Assembly: GCA_000165345.1 (NCBI GenBank)
Contig: CM000434.1
Location: 1,120,001 to 1,184,000 of the forward strand
Length of the DNA stretch: 64,000 nt
Direction of reading: 5' to 3'
This document shows, one piece after another, positions 27,173-35,120 of this stretch (position 1 is its first letter; every line of letters starts with the position of its first letter). The notes under the pieces were generated by a model. That model saw nothing but the letters and a program-made list of their open reading frames with translations, searched no databases and had not been told where the DNA came from. Made by a program: the position numbers and the translations under genes.

Positions 27173-27187
27173 CTGGCGCCGGCGGGA
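27173..27187. promoter_or_regulatory. E2F-like composite box TGGCGCCGGCGGGAA, 85 bp upstream of the DEAD-box helicase ATG
   Basis: Overlapping GGCGCC and GGCGGGAA cores. Confidence 0.5.
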
Positions 27188-27257
27188 ATGCATAACTGTA
27201 AAAGCTGACATTAATTATTTATTCGAAGGCGAAATAAAGAGGAGAGAGAAAATAAAG

Positions 27258-28889
27258 ATGTGGAGTTCTTTAGAGTTAAGTAGGCCTTTATTAAAGGCAT
27301 TAAGCGATTTGAACTTTGTAGAAGCAACGTTAATTCAGAAGGAGGTAATTCCATTGGCATTATCGGGAAGAGATATTATGGCTGAGGCAGAAACAGGAAG
27401 CGGAAAGACAGCAGCATTTTTATTACCTGCATTGGAAAGATTATTGAGGTCACCATATGTTCGAAATTCCAGGGTATCATCATTGGGAAGAGTTGGTGGA
27501 GCAGTTGGTACAAAGGTGTTGGTATTATTGCCAAGTCGTGAACTAGCAATGCAATGCTTTGGAGTATTAGAATCTTTGACAAAATATTGCCCAGTGATAA
27601 CCAGGGCAGTAGTAACAGGTGGGATGAATATTCAACAGCAAGAAAGAATACTTAAATGCCAACCACATATTGTTATAGCAACACCAGGAAGAATTTTGGA
27701 TATGCTATTAAATACATTAAGCATACAGTTAGAATTATTGGAAATAATTATATTGGATGAAGCTGACAGATTATTGGATATGGGGTTTCGTCAAGAATGT
27801 TTGGAAATTCTTAAATATTCATCTAGAACTCGCCAGACAATGTTATTTTCAGCAACATTAAGTAGAAGTGTAACAGATTTAGCTTTATTGGCTCTAAATA
27901 ATCCATGCAAAGTATCTACAGTTGGTCTCAAATCAGGGATCAAATCTGTAGGAAGTTCAGGAGAATCAGAATTATTATCTATTACAGGTTTATCATCAAC
28001 ATTAGAACAAGAATTTCTTGAGATTACTAAAGAAGAAGAAAGAGAAGGCGCTTTGTTTTATATTTTAAATAAGATATTTACAAAAAGGGTTATAGTCTTT
28101 TTCCAAACTAAAAAAGAAGCTCATAGATGTGCAATTTTAGGAAATATTTTTGGATTATCATCAACAGAGTTACATGGATTCTTACCACAAGAAAAACGTT
28201 TAGAAAATTTTTCAAAGTTTAAATCTGGACAAGTTGATATTTTATTTGCTAGCGAACTAGCAGCAAGAGGATTGGATGTACAAGATGTTTCTGCAGTTAT
28301 CAATTTCACTATTCCATTAGAAGCTTCTAGATATATTCATAGAGTTGGAAGAACTGCAAGAATTGGATCTAAAGGCAATTGCATTACAATTTACACTCGA
28401 AGCGAAAGAAGCCAGTTAAAAGCTTTAATGAAACAGGTACTAAGAGCAGGTAATAAGTCTTCTGTTGCAGGAAGAGACACAAAAGAAAATGTATCTTCAA
28501 TTATGAAGAAGAGAACTCTTGCTACTAATAACATTAATCAATGGGTTGAGAAAATATCTAATTCTGAAAAACAAGTCAAAGATGCAATAAAAGCAGATAT
28601 TACAGAAAAAGAACTTAGAATTGCTGAGATGCAAGTAAATAAAGCGCAAAATATTCTTTTACACAAAAAAGATATTGAATCCAGGCCAAGAAAAAAGTGG
28701 ATAAAAAGCAAAAAAGAAAAGGATTTAACTAGAGAATCTGCAAAAAAGGATTTATTAAAATCTTGTTCTTCACTAATTGGCCAACATTCGGCATTTAATC
28801 AAGTTAAGAATACTCTTCAAAATGATTTAAAATCCAGTAACAAAACGGTTACTAATAAAAACAAAAAAAGAAAATTATCACAAAAATGA
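27258..28889 (+). CDS. DEAD-box ATP-dependent RNA helicase (DDX27/Drs1-like) with a basic C-terminal tail
   Basis: 543 aa. The Q-motif region is followed by motif I AETGSGKTAAFLLP, Ia PSRELA, II DEADRLLDMGF, III SAT and VI HRVGRTAR. The C-terminus is K/R-rich. Confidence 0.85.
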   Translation: MWSSLELSRPLLKALSDLNFVEATLIQKEVIPLALSGRDIMAEAETGSGKTAAFLLPALERLLRSPYVRNSRVSSLGRVGGAVGTKVLVLLPSRELAMQCFGVLESLTKYCPVITRAVVTGGMNIQQQERILKCQPHIVIATPGRILDMLLNTLSIQLELLEIIILDEADRLLDMGFRQECLEILKYSSRTRQTMLFSATLSRSVTDLALLALNNPCKVSTVGLKSGIKSVGSSGESELLSITGLSSTLEQEFLEITKEEEREGALFYILNKIFTKRVIVFFQTKKEAHRCAILGNIFGLSSTELHGFLPQEKRLENFSKFKSGQVDILFASELAARGLDVQDVSAVINFTIPLEASRYIHRVGRTARIGSKGNCITIYTRSERSQLKALMKQVLRAGNKSSVAGRDTKENVSSIMKKRTLATNNINQWVEKISNSEKQVKDAIKADITEKELRIAEMQVNKAQNILLHKKDIESRPRKKWIKSKKEKDLTRESAKKDLLKSCSSLIGQHSAFNQVKNTLQNDLKSSNKTVTNKNKKRKLSQK

Positions 28890-29031: not shown

Positions 29032-29080
29032 TATCCACATTAATTCCAAATGCATGCATGCATGCAAAAAACACGTAATT
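29032..29080. promoter_or_regulatory. Composite module (TATCCACAT, TGCATGCATGCATGCA, ACACGTAATT) in the tail-to-tail region between the DEAD-box and roadblock genes
   Basis: The sequence is tatccacattaattccaaatgcatgcatgcatgcaaaaaacacgtaatt. Confidence 0.4.
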
Positions 29081-29151: not shown

Positions 29152-29876
29152 TTATCCAGATAAAGCGTTATTAATGTTGTTAAACTTAATATGTACTTTT
29201 CCAATAGAAGCATTATATTCAAACCATACAATTAAGAATAGATTTTTAAAGTGCGTGTGACCAATGATAAATTTCCCATTAGAACTTTCTAAATAAAAGT
29301 CTTTAATAGTGTGATTATTAGAATTATATTCGTTAAAAGAGCTAACTAATACTGAAGAAATATGTTTAATTTGTGAATTTGTTTCTGAATTTTCTTTTTT
29401 CATTCCCAAAGAAAAAATACCTCCTTCTTTATTTACTAAGCTAAAGTAAAACAATTTAGTTATTTGCTTGTTTCCTTAAAGAAATATGATTAGCCTCCTT
29501 GAATATATTTTAAATATGTCAAATAATAGTGTTGAAGTCCTGTGAAATATAACTAAAAATAATCCCAAAATTTCATTTGGAATTTTGTTATTTTTAACTG
29601 AAATATATCCCACCCAAAAAAATTATTTATTGTAAGGATAATATTTCCAACACATACACACACAACCTCTCAAAGCTTTTGATTTGTAGGATTCAAAGAA
29701 TTATTGAAATAAATATTTATATTTATTTAATATTTATAAATACTTATACAATATATATTATTCTGTTGATAGAGAAATGGAGACAACCTAGCTCAAACTT
29801 ACATTATTGCTTTTATTTCATCACTTTCACAAATTTCTCGATTTAAAAGTTCATTCAAGTTTTTTGAATTGATCAT
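29152..29876 (-). CDS. Roadblock/LC7 (MglB) family dynein light chain-like protein, two exons; absent from the ORF track as a complete gene
   Basis: Exon 1, 29876..29803, has ATG at 29876 and reads MINSKNLNELLNREICESDEIKAI plus AT. The donor GTAAGT is at 29802..29797 and the intron is 362 nt. The acceptor TTTTACTTTAG has its AG at 29442..29441. Exon 2, 29440..29152, reads (I)LVNKEGGIFSLG...FKNLFLIVWFE... The 120-aa product aligns to roadblock ([35 protein letters not shown]). The track ORF 29152..29454 starts at a TTG. E2F-like boxes lie at 29930..29942 (54 bp upstream) and 30186..30198. Confidence 0.5.
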
Positions 29877-30603
29877 TTTTTATTTATTATATTACCATTT
29901 TTTCTTCAATATTGAAAAATGGCCCAAAATTCCCGCCAAAATTTTTATATTTTCAAGTTAAATCAAATATGCATGCATACATGCATATTACATGTATATT
30001 AACAAAAAATTAATTTTTCAAAATAAAAAGAAAACAATAATAAACAATAATAACTAAACAATTGATTATATTTATTCCAATACAAATGTTTATATTGAAT
30101 TTGTTCTTCTTCTATTACAATAATAAATTTCTTTTATTATTGTAGATTCAACAAATTATTTTAATATTAAATTTCATCATGAATCTTTTGGCGGGAACGT
30201 CCAACATAGAAATCAGAATAACAGAAAAAATAAATTTAAAACTTTACAGAATATTAAATCAAATGGTATCGAGACGAGACGAGACAAATAACAATACAAG
30301 ATTTTTCTTCTTCATATTGGCAGAATTAATTTTTTTTACTTGATAGTGATTTTTTTAAATTATAACTAACGAATCTAATATATAGGTATAAATTTTGAGC
30401 ATATTTTTGGTGGATTTACTATAGGAAATTTGACTTCATAAAAATCTCTTTGAGACTGCGATAAGCTTGATAAATGACTTCCTCAGCTAAATAAGTATTT
30501 CAAATATGTTTTTTCTTTCCTTTCTTACTTTTCTCCTCTTTCTCTCACTTTCCTTCTTCCCTTCTTTCTCTCCCCATTCTATTTAGCTAATCCTTCCAAT
30601 CAT

Positions 30604-33600
30604 TCATGAATCTAACCTACCAAATTCATTTTCTTCAACATCTCTTGCTTCTCTTGAAACCCCAATTTCCTTTTCTTCATCATCATCCTTTTCTTCCTCT
30701 AAATCTTTAGAAGATGATTGAGCCTGGTTTACCTTTTCTTTAATTGCAGTGATAGAAACTGGGATTATTGAGGCTGCTCCATCTGATGAAGATACTTGAA
30801 TCTGGCCTTTGAAGGTTTGATCTTCAAAAGTTGAGGGAATTACAGCTTTCCAACCAACTTTGTAAATCATTTGAGCTCTTTGTAAAGGAGGAACAATTGT
30901 CTCACTAAGTTGAAACCAAGGAACCTTTGGATTCTCTGGATACAATTCTATTGAAAATTCTGATGTAGGAAACTTTTCAGTACATGGTATTCCAACTCCT
31001 AAAGATATTAATATAGAAATTAGTTAGTTAATTCTGTTTCTCTATTATTTAAAAAAAAACTTAATATAACTTACCTCTTATCCCATCAATACTTTCCCAT
31101 CCAAGCATTGTTGAAGATGAAATTCTACTAATTGCCAAACTTCCTTTCTCTGAGGATGAAATTCCTCTAGAATCTTCTAAATCCTCCCAGGGAATACTCA
31201 AATAATTGAATTTCACTGATCCATTACTGTTCAACACACATTGAAATGTTGCTGATTTTGAATTGTATTGTTCAGATTTTAGAAATACATTTCTCCATTC
31301 TATTACAAACTCCCACCTCCTTTTCTTCCCCTCTTCCTTTTCTTCTCCATCATCCTCTTCTTCATACTCTAGTCTTTCCTCTCTTCTATATCTACTACCA
31401 ACTCCACTACCAAATCCTCCTCCAAAATCTTCCTCATCTTCTTCAGTCTTTAAGAATGTCACAATTTTCGTATTCTCTCTTCTTCCTCTTGTTGTGAAAT
31501 CTGTCCATAAAGGGGCTAAAATACCATGAGGAGGAGCATATGAGGGTAATGCTGGTACAAATGCTTCACTATATATTGGACTGAAAGAAATAAATCCATT
31601 TACTGAGACATAAATCTCGTCAATCTTCTCCCCAAGAAAGTACCAACTTCTTGGAAGATTTACTTTTTGCACTCCATCATCTGAGTTAGATAAGTCTGTG
31701 AGAATTGTTTCTTGATTAATTCCAATATTTACCCAATCAAACTTTACATTAGCCTTGGGTAAAATCACATCATCTAAAGATACATATAACTTATTTTTAC
31801 CTTCTTCAGAATCCATTCCTTCTAATCTATGAATAATCCTCTTCTTAGAAGGAAGATTCTCTCCAGAAAGAACCATCTTAAAGTAAGATTTTGATGGAGA
31901 TAGATCTTTAATAGAAGTATTACTTCTTGAATAGTCTTTTCTTTTACTTTCTCTTTCAAATCCTGTTGAACTTGGATCTCTTAAAGACTTAAATCTTAAG
32001 TAAATTCTAGGCTTAAATGAATTCTCTAATCCTTTAAATAATATAAAACCAGAAATTGTTGTTTCTGGAATTCTGATTACTCTATTAATTGAAGGAGGAC
32101 GAATTTCTATTCCATATCCTTTACAATAAAGTTTGATTGCAAGTCTTTCAGTTCCAACTGGGAATGAACTTGATGAAGATGATGACAAGATATAGTTACT
32201 GTTTGGGGATATAATATTATTTGATAGAGTATTTATTATTGATGATGTCTCTGTAAATAAGTTACTTCTTACATATGGTATCTTTGTAGACTTGGCTGAT
32301 ATCTTATTTGATGAAAATGAAGAAGATGAAGATGACATTCCTCCTTTGTTATATCTCAACATTAAATGACCACTTATAAATCCTTCTAAAGAGTGTGGAA
32401 TACAACTCACTTGAAGATCCTTGTTTGTCTGATCCTCACCTACTGTTAAAATGGTACCCAATGGTGGATATACTTTAAACTTTCCTTTTCTTTTAGATCC
32501 TAATTCTCCTTCCATATTGACAAATTCAACCATATATTCTAAGGTACCAATACCTGAATTAGAAATTGGAATCAATGTTTTTGTTCCTTCTAATCCCATA
32601 AAAGATAATCCAAGATTTGTACTATTTCCATTTGGTAAAATCGCTTTTGGTTTTGGAATACTAACAACATTAATTATTGTTTTAAGCCTACCTTGAGCCA
32701 AAGTAACTTCACGATCATTAGAATCCACTAGCTTGACAACCAAAGTGGATGTAAAAGATCCAGGCTTCTCCCCAAAAGCTTTAAGTTTAAGTATTGAACT
32801 TGATTGAGGTCCTATAGTATCAGGAGCTTTAAAAGTGATCCAAGAGGTACCAATTCTAGGAAATTCTTTACCATTTTCTTGGTTATAAGCTTCCTGACTC
32901 ATCATTTGAACAGCTCTATGAATATTTAATGTCCCAGAGGTACGAACAGAATTTCTTAATGTTGTAAGTACTGTTACTGATCTTAATATAAGCGTTTTTG
33001 CTTGATCAAAAGTCATACTTGGATCAAAAGCATATAATAAAGCTGCAGCTCCTGAAACAAATGGACATGCCATAGAAGTCCCTGATAACCTCTTATAACC
33101 TTTATTGGCACTAGTAGATAATATATCTACTCCTGGAGCTGCCATATCTACACTTCTATGACCATAATTTGAAAAGACACCAAGTCTTCCATGTATATCA
33201 ATTGCAGCTACAGATAATACATTTGGAAGCTGGTAAGCTGATGGATAAGTTGGTCTAATATCATTATTATTTCTATCATTACCTGCTGCAACAACAAAGA
33301 GCATGTTCTTATCAATACTCCTCTTAATAGCATCATATGTAGCCTGGGAAAATGATCCTCCTCCCCAACTGTTAGATAAAATATTAGCTCCCATCTTAAT
33401 AGCATAGTTAATAGCTTTAACACTATCACTTAGAAAACCAACTCCATTTCCTCTTAGAAACTTAAGAGCCATAATTTTAACTCCCTTCCAGTTAATCCCA
33501 GAAATACCTTCATGATTATTCCCTTTTGCTGCAATAGTACCTGCACAATGTGTACCATGTCCTTCATCATCAACTGGTGCTCCTCTATTATTTGCAAAAT

Positions 33601-34654
33601 CATAGCCATATATATCATCAACATAACCATTCATATCATCATCAACTCCTGGTCTTCCATATAACTCTTTTTCATTAACCCACATATTCTCAACCAAATC
33701 TGGATGAGTATAATCTACACCAGTATCTATAACAGCAACAATTACTTCCCTTTTTGGATGGTTTTCAGGAGTATAATATACTCCAGATCCTTTAGATACG
33801 GATGTATTAATACCTAAATGTTTCCATGCCATCAAAACTTTTGAGTCAGTGTTTGCAACTCTATTATACATTCCCCATTGTTCAGAGAATTTGGGATCAT
33901 TTGGATATATTGCTCCAGAATCTGAACTAATTCCAAAATCTGCAAGCCTAACTTCCTGATCTGGTTCAACATATTCAACTTCATCACTATGTAAAAAACT
34001 TGCAGAAAGTTTTGAAATATATTCAGATGCTTTAGAATTGTTAAATACTTCAACAATCATCATATCTAATGCTTCGAGAACTGTAGCAGATTTGATTCCA
34101 ACAAGCTCATCAGCAGATTCTGATAAAGCTGAAACAACTCTTGTTAAGAATGCTACACCATCTAATTTAGGATATTGACCATTTTTTGACATAATTCCTG
34201 CAACTTTCAACTCTTTGACAGCTTTACTTAAGACTTTTTCCTTATACTTAATAATAAGCCTTCCTGGAATAACTTTAGATCTCCTTCCTTGACCTCTAGA
34301 GACTTTTTCTGAATTAAATTCTTGATTTGAATCCTTTTCTTGGTAATAATAATCATCTTCATCATCCATATTACCCATTTCTGAGAATTCTCCAAGGATA
34401 TGTTCTTGTTCATAATCTTCTTCTGGAGGTTTTTGTTGTTTCATAATATATGGACTAAATACTTTCTCAACAACTTGTACTTCAGGAGTTGCTGATTGGT
34501 CTGCAGGGTTTTTTATAACTAACTCTAAATCAGAGCTCCGACCTTCAACTACATTAATTGAAATTGAGCTGGTATTGAATATATTACAAATAACCCTTTT
34601 TTGAAAAAATACCAATAAATATGGCAACAACTTGAAAATATTTACCTTTTTCAT
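30604..34654 (-). CDS. SUB1: Subtilisin-like serine protease (SUB1-like subtilase), two exons (34654..31075 and 30998..30604)
   Basis: The catalytic triad motifs are VAVIDTGVDYTHPDL (Asp), HGTHCAGTIAA (His) and GTSMACPFVSGAAALL (Ser), with a signal-anchor-like N-terminus. The track ORF 31061..34654 runs into a GTAAGT donor (31074..31069) after ...SIDGIR, phase 1. A 76-nt intron follows. The acceptor CTTTAG has its AG at 31000..30999. Exon 2 is G-VGIPCTEKFPTSEFSIELYPENPKVPWFQLSETIV... and contains the track ORF 30604..30945, whose M is a TTG. The spliced product is about 1324 aa. Confidence 0.8.
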
Positions 34655-35003: not shown

Positions 35004-35120
35004 CATCCACATGCTCGAATACGATTTTGCATGTATACCGGTATGCAAATTTTTTTTAAGAATTAAAATAATTTTTTGTAATACCGGTACCGCCCCACAT
35101 TTGGGCGGGAATTTCCCGAG
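35004..35120. promoter_or_regulatory. Divergent promoter block between SUB1 and PRP19: composite module (CATCCACATG, TTTTGCATGTATACCGGTATGCAAAT, ATACCGGTACC) plus the near-palindromic E2F-like box TTTGGGCGGGAATTTCCCGAG
   Basis: The motifs lie at 35004..35014, 35025..35050, 35081..35096 and 35100..35120. Confidence 0.45.

Follow-up and report, generated by a model that had tools for sequence, protein, structure and literature searches.

Over 5,252 nt, Cryptosporidium parvum chromosome 6 (BX526834.1) is 100% identical to the window (i.e., the whole stretch of 64,000 nucleotides that was analysed, positions 1,120,001 to 1,184,000 of contig CM000434.1). The locus of interest lies on the minus strand of the window, where its neighbours are the convergent DEAD-box helicase gene cgd6_4830 (27258..28889, plus strand) and, upstream and on the same strand, the subtilase gene cgd6_4840. 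At this locus the BX526834 annotation holds an 83-aa fragment only, and neither the cgd numbering nor the 2015 re-annotation ortholog table has an entry between cgd6_4830 and cgd6_4840. The following features were delineated:

29803..29876, minus strand: exon 1, 74 nt (ATG start, 24 codons, and 2 nt; phase 2), encoding the predicted α1 and β1 of a Roadblock domain (MINSKNLNELLNREICESDEIKAI-)
29441..29802, minus strand: intron, 362 nt, 23% G+C, with donor GTAAGT at 29802..29797 and acceptor TTTAG (AG at 29442..29441)
29152..29440, minus strand: exon 2, 289 nt, 95 codons plus the TAA stop (29154..29152), encoding the predicted β2, α2, β3–β5, and C-terminal α3
29152..29454, minus strand: the 100-aa "TTG" open reading frame (ORF) of the ORF track, the first 14 nt of which are intron sequence

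The start ATG (29876..29874, minus strand) sits in an A-rich context with in-frame stop codons just 5′ of it. Exon 1 reads ATGATCAATTCA…GCAATAAT and is followed by GTAAGT, and unspliced reading into the intron meets stop codons at once. The 3′ part of the intron displays a branch-point-like TAACTAA (29462..29456), then a pyrimidine-rich tract, and then the acceptor, with the 3′ end …AATAACTAAATTGTTTTACTTTAG finishing at 29441. Splicing 29803 onto 29440 brings the long ORF back into frame and results in a spliced coding sequence (CDS) of 363 nt, with a product of 120 aa: MINSKNLNELLNREICESDEIKAIILVNKEGGIFSLGMKKENSETNSQIKHISSVLVSSFNEYNSNNHTIKDFYLESSNGKFIIGHTHFKNLFLIVWFEYNASIGKVHIKFNNINNALSG. A preliminary description of this DNA had proposed a 74-nt first exon with its ATG at 29876, a phase-2 end, a GTAAGT donor, and a 362-nt intron, and all of these coordinates were verified; the 120-aa product that it expected from splicing was also recovered, as the computed CDS encodes exactly the peptide segments that it quoted. 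In addition, the presumed 5′ UTR holds a three-codon uORF (ATG GTA ATA TAA; 29887..29898, minus strand, out of frame), situated 22 nt 5′ of the main ATG.

At this locus the mechanical ORF list indeed contains, as had been described, the 100-aa TTG ORF (29152..29454) alone. Since the first 14 nt of this ORF are intronic, bacterial-style ORF calling has produced an artefact here. Its TTG had also been described as directly preceded by a splice acceptor, and this part did not hold: while the TTG ORF exists, the TTG itself (29454..29452) lies inside the 3′ end of the intron, just 3′ of the TAACTAA sequence and 10 nt upstream of the acceptor AG (29442..29441).

To place this gene model in a comparative framework, the window was aligned with the syntenic loci of C. 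ubiquitum (L001), Cryptosporidium sp. chipmunk genotype I (L002), two unannotated Logan assemblies (L003 and L004), and C. muris (L014). All six Cryptosporidium genomes, the distant C. muris among them, carry a 74-nt first exon with an ATG start, a phase-2 end, and a GTAAGT donor, and each of them allows a single GT..AG solution, yielding a protein of 119–122 aa. Relative to the window, exon 1 aligned gap-free at 80–89% identity and exon 2 at 72–86% identity; the intron aligned at 47–68% identity with 26–94 gap columns, thereby resembling the flanking intergenic DNA. In a five-species conservation profile, invariant columns amounted to 50–80% over both exons and to 0–30% over the intron, within which small bumps marked the donor and the branch/acceptor region. 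Of the variable sites, 14 of 21 in exon 1 (p = 0.0018) and 76 of 106 in exon 2 (p = 8e-16) were third codon positions. Within C. parvum, comparison of the window with six Logan assemblies (L005 and L008–L012) revealed three SNP sites in the 725-nt gene (29794, 29531, and 29525), all of them intronic, with both exons being invariant. Since six genomes keep the same exon length, phase, and donor, the gene model stands far above chance, and these alignments make it very probable that a genuine two-exon protein-coding gene is located at 29876..29152 (minus strand).

The region upstream of exon 1 was found to contain the following elements:

29930..29940, minus strand: proximal E2F-like box TTTGGCGGGAA, ending 54 nt 5′ of the ATG, with its core GGCGGGAA at 29930..29937
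29970..29977, no strand assigned: palindromic TGCATGCA box, about 100 nt 5′ of the ATG, at a local conservation peak (29989..29970)
30187..30197, plus strand: distal inverted copy of the 11-mer TTTGGCGGGAA, about 311 nt 5′ of the ATG, with the 8-mer part at 30190..30197

Both E2F-like boxes announced at 54 and 310 bp upstream of the ATG were thus found at those distances. In each of the five intestinal-clade species, the proximal box (TTGGCGGGAA) is located at –53 to –63 and the GCATGC box at –86 to –100 relative to the ATG of exon 1; in C. muris, the E2F-like box was not found within 400 nt 5′ of the ATG. The distal inverted box is common to the window and L003 (at –299) only, i.e., two of the five species, and was therefore rejected as part of the conserved promoter. 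The conserved distances of the boxes support a transcription start 5′ of exon 1. Across the window, GGCGGGAA occurs 12 times (vs. 0.2 expected) and TGCATGCA 26 times (vs. 0.7 expected), with several copies just 5′ of gene starts, such as that at 27181..27188, which precedes the ATG of the helicase gene (27258) by 70 nt; another copy (35104..35111) is situated about 450 nt 5′ of the subtilase ATG at 34654. Because of its 12 copies against 0.2 expected, the E2F-like motif appears to be a general rather than a gene-specific promoter element, and the distribution of both motifs is consistent with their being general Cryptosporidium promoter elements. A (TGCA)4 run (TGCATGCATGCATGCA, 29051..29066) was furthermore observed in the 3′ intergenic region, where 262 bp separate the stop of this gene (29152) from the convergent helicase stop (28889), which is an odd place for a motif that otherwise occurs upstream of genes; this run is not conserved in the five-species alignment.

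The conservation of exon 1 and the position of the promoter motifs also bear on the reading in which exon 1 is unused and in which a transcript starting inside the presumed intron yields either the 83-aa product from M38 (CAD98300.1) or the 100-aa ORF. The 83-aa product is the deposited C. parvum annotation, CAD98300.1 being identical to the 120-aa product from M38 onward, and the spliced junction was absent from all nine public contigs checked (L005–L013), which are all genomic and have the intron present. However, M38, i.e., M18 of the 100-aa ORF and the alternative start by which the preliminary description proposed its model could be refuted, turned out to be an ATG in C. parvum only and is thus not conserved. 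In four other species this codon is GTA, GTT, GTC, or TTT, and there exon 1 supplies the sole in-frame ATG within the first 60 codons. Moreover, the TTG of the 100-aa ORF sits in the polypyrimidine tract of the intron, the conservation of exon 1 across six genomes is of the coding type, the 83-aa product would be devoid of α1, β1, and β2 of the domain, and the conserved promoter motifs stand 5′ of exon 1, with none within the intron. Translation from M38 or from the TTG is consequently very improbable, and the two-exon model is kept below.

The orthologous introns measure 362 (window), 350, 325, 303, 282, and 58 nt, without a multiple-of-3 constraint, and their position and phase are common to the genus. 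Since C. muris has the intron too, its position is, on the loci compared, ancient; and since it measures 58 nt in C. muris (L014, 2575..2632) vs. 282–362 nt in the five intestinal-clade genomes, it is seen as having expanded five- to sixfold in the intestinal clade. Its description as long for this genome is justified, since 362 nt corresponds to about 3.7 times the mean of 99 bp published for C. parvum introns (PMC4637869). The G+C content of 22–23% is a typical value. An RNA gene hidden in the intron was considered and rejected, as an Rfam scan of the locus including the intron gave no match and conservation inside the intron is confined to the donor and branch/acceptor regions, with no other internal block. 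As a control within the window, the subtilase gene cgd6_4840 (30604..34654) has a 76-nt intron (30999..31074, minus strand; GTAAGT…TTAACTAACTAA…TCTTTAG) that joins a 1197-aa ORF (31061..34654) to a 113-aa ORF (30604..30945) into the deposited 1,324 aa, and its splice signals match those of the Roadblock gene intron.

Full-length orthologs of 119–124 aa are annotated in C. meleagridis, C. ubiquitum, C. sp. chipmunk genotype I, C. muris, C. andersoni, and C. serpentis, under the UniRef names "Roadblock/LC7 domain protein" or "Roadblock/LAMTOR2 domain-containing protein". In C. parvum, the exact 120-aa sequence had no match in a 15-billion-protein collection, and the gene is truly hidden in the annotation of this species because there is only the 83-aa fragment, no cgd identifier, and no exact 120-aa entry. 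The present result is an annotation correction and a subfamily refinement; in sister species, the gene has already been annotated with its domain label. Surveys built on the classic cgd or 2015 protein sets miss this Roadblock gene, and a literature search combining Cryptosporidium with LAMTOR2, Ragulator, GATOR1, or the gene identifiers retrieved nothing specific to it. As a small synteny difference, the C. muris locus carries a HIT-family gene (L014, 3022..3453; DcpS_C/HIT Pfam matches) between the Roadblock gene and the DEAD-box helicase gene, and this gene is not at that position in C. parvum or at the other intestinal-clade loci.

At the protein level, neither the 120-aa nor the 100-aa product had a Roadblock match in a Pfam hmmscan, with none for Robl_LC7 (PF03259) at E ≤ 10; a DUF3116 match (E of about 0.1) was judged spurious. 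Across seven family members all Pfam matches were sub-threshold, with MAPKK1_Int in three of seven (best E = 0.008) and Robl_LC7 in two of seven (best E = 0.15). A phmmer search against PDB sequences gave no match, and an exhaustive profile search of 1.84 billion representatives retrieved Cryptosporidium orthologs only and no remote homologs. Three long repetitive proteins in the latter search were judged spurious, and the one that was read (P0011) has kinesin-motor-like repeats. When a seven-sequence profile was searched against PDB sequences, matches were obtained with a Thorarchaeota Roadblock protein (E = 0.004), MglB (0.06–0.1), and yeast Slm4/Ego3 (0.16), with alignments that reach the C-terminus through α3, and with no DYNLRB among them. 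Since the Pfam Robl_LC7 gathering score was not reached, membership of the Roadblock (RB) fold rests on structure together with weak profile matches.

Structures were modelled (AF2) on two orthologs, i.e., that of the chipmunk genotype (P0001, 93% identical to the window protein; pLDDT 77, pTM 0.72) and that of C. muris (P0010; pLDDT 86.7, pTM 0.83). Both models display the topology α1-β1-β2-α2-β3-β4-β5-α3, with a five-stranded antiparallel sheet between helices. The α3 helix is predicted at residues 108–119 in the chipmunk-genotype ortholog and at 103–120 in C. muris (pLDDT about 83–93), and the 20–25 residues past β5 are nearly invariant in the intestinal-clade orthologs, with conserved positions kept in C. 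muris. This predicted α3 superposes on α3 of LAMTOR2 (118 of 120 residues aligned), and the segment also aligns at the sequence level with α3 of MglB and of the Thorarchaeota RB protein. For the chipmunk-genotype model, the best seven Foldseek matches were all LAMTOR2 chains, with no dynein LC7 among the best 50, and in both fold searches LAMTOR2 came first and dynein LC7 far below LAMTOR2, MglB, and Asgard RB. The Roadblock (MglB) fold put forward in the preliminary description is therefore upheld by the α-ββ-α-βββ-α topology of both models and by the fold searches, and the modelling confirms the 120-aa protein as a predicted complete, single-domain Roadblock fold.

Full Roadblock domains (αββαβββα; MglB, LAMTOR2/3) are distinguished from the LC7 type without α3 (dynein light chain, LAMTOR4/5) (Levine et al. 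2013, PMC3747258; Tran et al. 2024, PMC10933270), and the helix that the dynein light chain lacks comes in trans from the dynein intermediate chain (PMC3747258; PMC10933270). Verified LAMTOR2 and DYNLRB1 families were retrieved and compared locally with the Cryptosporidium family, with HMMER run with filters off. The Cryptosporidium HMM scored up to 20.4 bits (median 12.0) against LAMTOR2 sequences and up to 7.7 bits (median 6.2) against DYNLRB sequences. Conversely, the LAMTOR2 HMM aligned end-to-end (positions 1–115 to residues 1–118) at 12–17 bits (E of 5e-6 to 1e-4 in a search space of 14), and the DYNLRB HMM covered the N-terminal half only, at 5–10 bits. Comparison by hhalign with narrow metazoan profiles did not separate the two families: the probability was low for both (2% for LAMTOR2), and DYNLRB reached E = 0.0035 over 74 columns, i.e., a slightly better E over fewer columns. 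The LAMTOR2 relationship was invisible in the database-wide searches (phmmer vs. PDB, the 1.84-billion profile search, and profile vs. PDB), and LAMTOR2 orthology of the Cryptosporidium protein is not established.

The α3 helix that the LC7 type lacks is predicted to be present here, and clear sequence orthology to DYNLRB was not seen, either in the DYNLRB HMM comparison or in the PDB profile search. The features of the LAMTOR2 type, i.e., a full RB domain with α3 and a length of about 125 aa, are found in the models, with LAMTOR2 as the nearest structural neighbour. Because α3 is kept, the protein is assigned to the LAMTOR2/LAMTOR3/MglB type and not to the dynein LC7 type, and the earlier label of a dynein light chain did not stand up to the conserved predicted α3 and to the half-length DYNLRB vs. 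end-to-end LAMTOR2 alignments. We thus consider it likely, on the predicted structures, that this two-exon gene encodes a full Roadblock protein of the LAMTOR2/LAMTOR3/MglB type, the closest solved relative of which by structure is LAMTOR2 (p14/Lam2).

An ortholog of DYNLRB (Roadblock/LC7) that is highly diverged and acts as a homodimer on the dynein intermediate chain must nevertheless be weighed against this assignment. Reciprocal-best-BLAST has identified the C. parvum dynein subunits DHC (cgd1_750), DIC (cgd1_1540), LC8 (cgd2_740), and Tctex1 (cgd4_1830), with the Roadblock/LC7 cell being empty for C. parvum and filled for Plasmodium and Toxoplasma (Wickstead & Gull 2007, PMC2239267 supplement). 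C. parvum hence possesses the remainder of cytoplasmic dynein-1 but no recognised LC7, and the truncated 83-aa annotation would have concealed the gene from such surveys. The LC7 "absence" in this 2007 survey, which is older than the correct models of the gene, may hence need re-examination. Furthermore, the β1 (IILVNKEG) and β5 (FLIV) motifs resemble those of DYNLRB (YFLIV for the latter), and the hhalign value given above also speaks for this relationship. However, budding and fission yeast also have dynein and a blank LC7 cell (PMC2239267 supplement). The conserved predicted α3 would moreover take the site where the intermediate-chain helix binds LC7 (PMC3747258; PMC10933270), and the protein counts 120 aa vs. 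about 96 aa for DYNLRB. Dynein LC7 structures also rank far below LAMTOR2, MglB, and Asgard RB in the fold searches, the DYNLRB HMM stays at 5–10 bits over the N-terminal half, and, although DYNLRB is normally highly conserved across eukaryotes, no database-wide search ties the Cryptosporidium family to it. A diverged DYNLRB is thus unlikely, though clearly less so than translation from M38.

Within the full Roadblock assignment, the protein could also be lineage-specific and of non-LAMTOR2 descent, serving either as an MglB-like homodimeric GAP/GEF platform for another small GTPase or as a scaffold unique to Cryptosporidium. Database-wide, the family indeed matches RB proteins of prokaryotes or archaea best (Thorarchaeota, E = 0.004; MglB, 0.06–0.1) and not LAMTOR2, the β5-α3 segment FEYNASIGKVHIKFNNINNAL aligns with MglB FDNRTSLGLVRLRIKKASDEL, the family is genus-restricted at the detectable sequence level (among the 1.84 billion representatives), and TOR is reported absent from C. 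parvum (PMC3236823). Against this, both fold searches rank LAMTOR2 first, the targeted LAMTOR2 HMM matches end-to-end, and the neighbouring subtilase and helicase genes give no functional link. We regard such a separate descent as a serious alternative, though less likely than not; it rivals LAMTOR2 orthology and not the assignment to the full Roadblock proteins, and the two estimates are not additive.

As a full Roadblock protein of the LAMTOR2/LAMTOR3/MglB type, the product would fit the following scheme. Transcription would start 5′ of the ATG at 29876 and downstream of the conserved GCATGC and E2F-like boxes, and removal of the 362-nt GT-AG intron would provide the mRNA for a 120-aa single-domain full RB protein. 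Like other full RB proteins, this protein probably forms a dimer via α2/β3 and thereby a ten-stranded platform, which might serve as a docking site for, or a regulator of, a small GTPase, or as the scaffold of a complex on endomembranes. No TOR complex subunit was detected in C. parvum (van Dam et al., PMC3236823), and, according to a Toxoplasma preprint, neither Ragulator nor Rags nor Raptor had been identified in Toxoplasma or Plasmodium. Given the reported absence of TOR complexes from C. parvum, a platform role of this kind would be TOR-independent, and by analogy the protein is probably a dimeric, TOR-independent Roadblock platform working with a small GTPase or as an endomembrane scaffold. 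The canonical LAMTOR2 pathway and the canonical dynein LC7 both appear to be absent in C. parvum. More tentatively, and with some doubt, a LAMTOR2-type protein under purifying selection across the genus could mark a TOR-independent function, as either a remnant Ragulator-/MglB-like GTPase platform or an α3-bearing Roadblock subunit that fills the empty dynein LC7 position.

Cryptosporidium thus likely keeps a complete Roadblock protein of the GTPase-platform type, reportedly without TOR and with no canonical dynein LC7 reported. The identity of its partner would reveal the job of a LAMTOR2-like module outside the TOR pathway in a minimal parasite, as well as the make-up of its dynein.

Compared with known systems, the nearest structural relative is the Ragulator subunit LAMTOR2 (p14/ROBLD3; Lam2 in S. 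pombe), although sequence similarity of the Cryptosporidium protein to it is below database-wide detection. Moreover, LAMTOR2 has the context of LAMTOR3, LAMTOR1, Rag, and TORC1, whereas C. parvum reportedly has no TOR complexes (PMC3236823). LAMTOR3 (MP1) and yeast Ego3 (Slm4) always rank below LAMTOR2 in the fold searches, with Pfam matches far under the gathering threshold. The MglB and Asgard/bacterial RB homodimers are prokaryotic and act on MglA-type GTPases, and their identity to the Cryptosporidium protein amounts to 10–18%. Finally, DYNLRB1/2 have the superfamily and the core αββαβββ fold in common with the Cryptosporidium protein, next to the similar β1 and β5 motifs.
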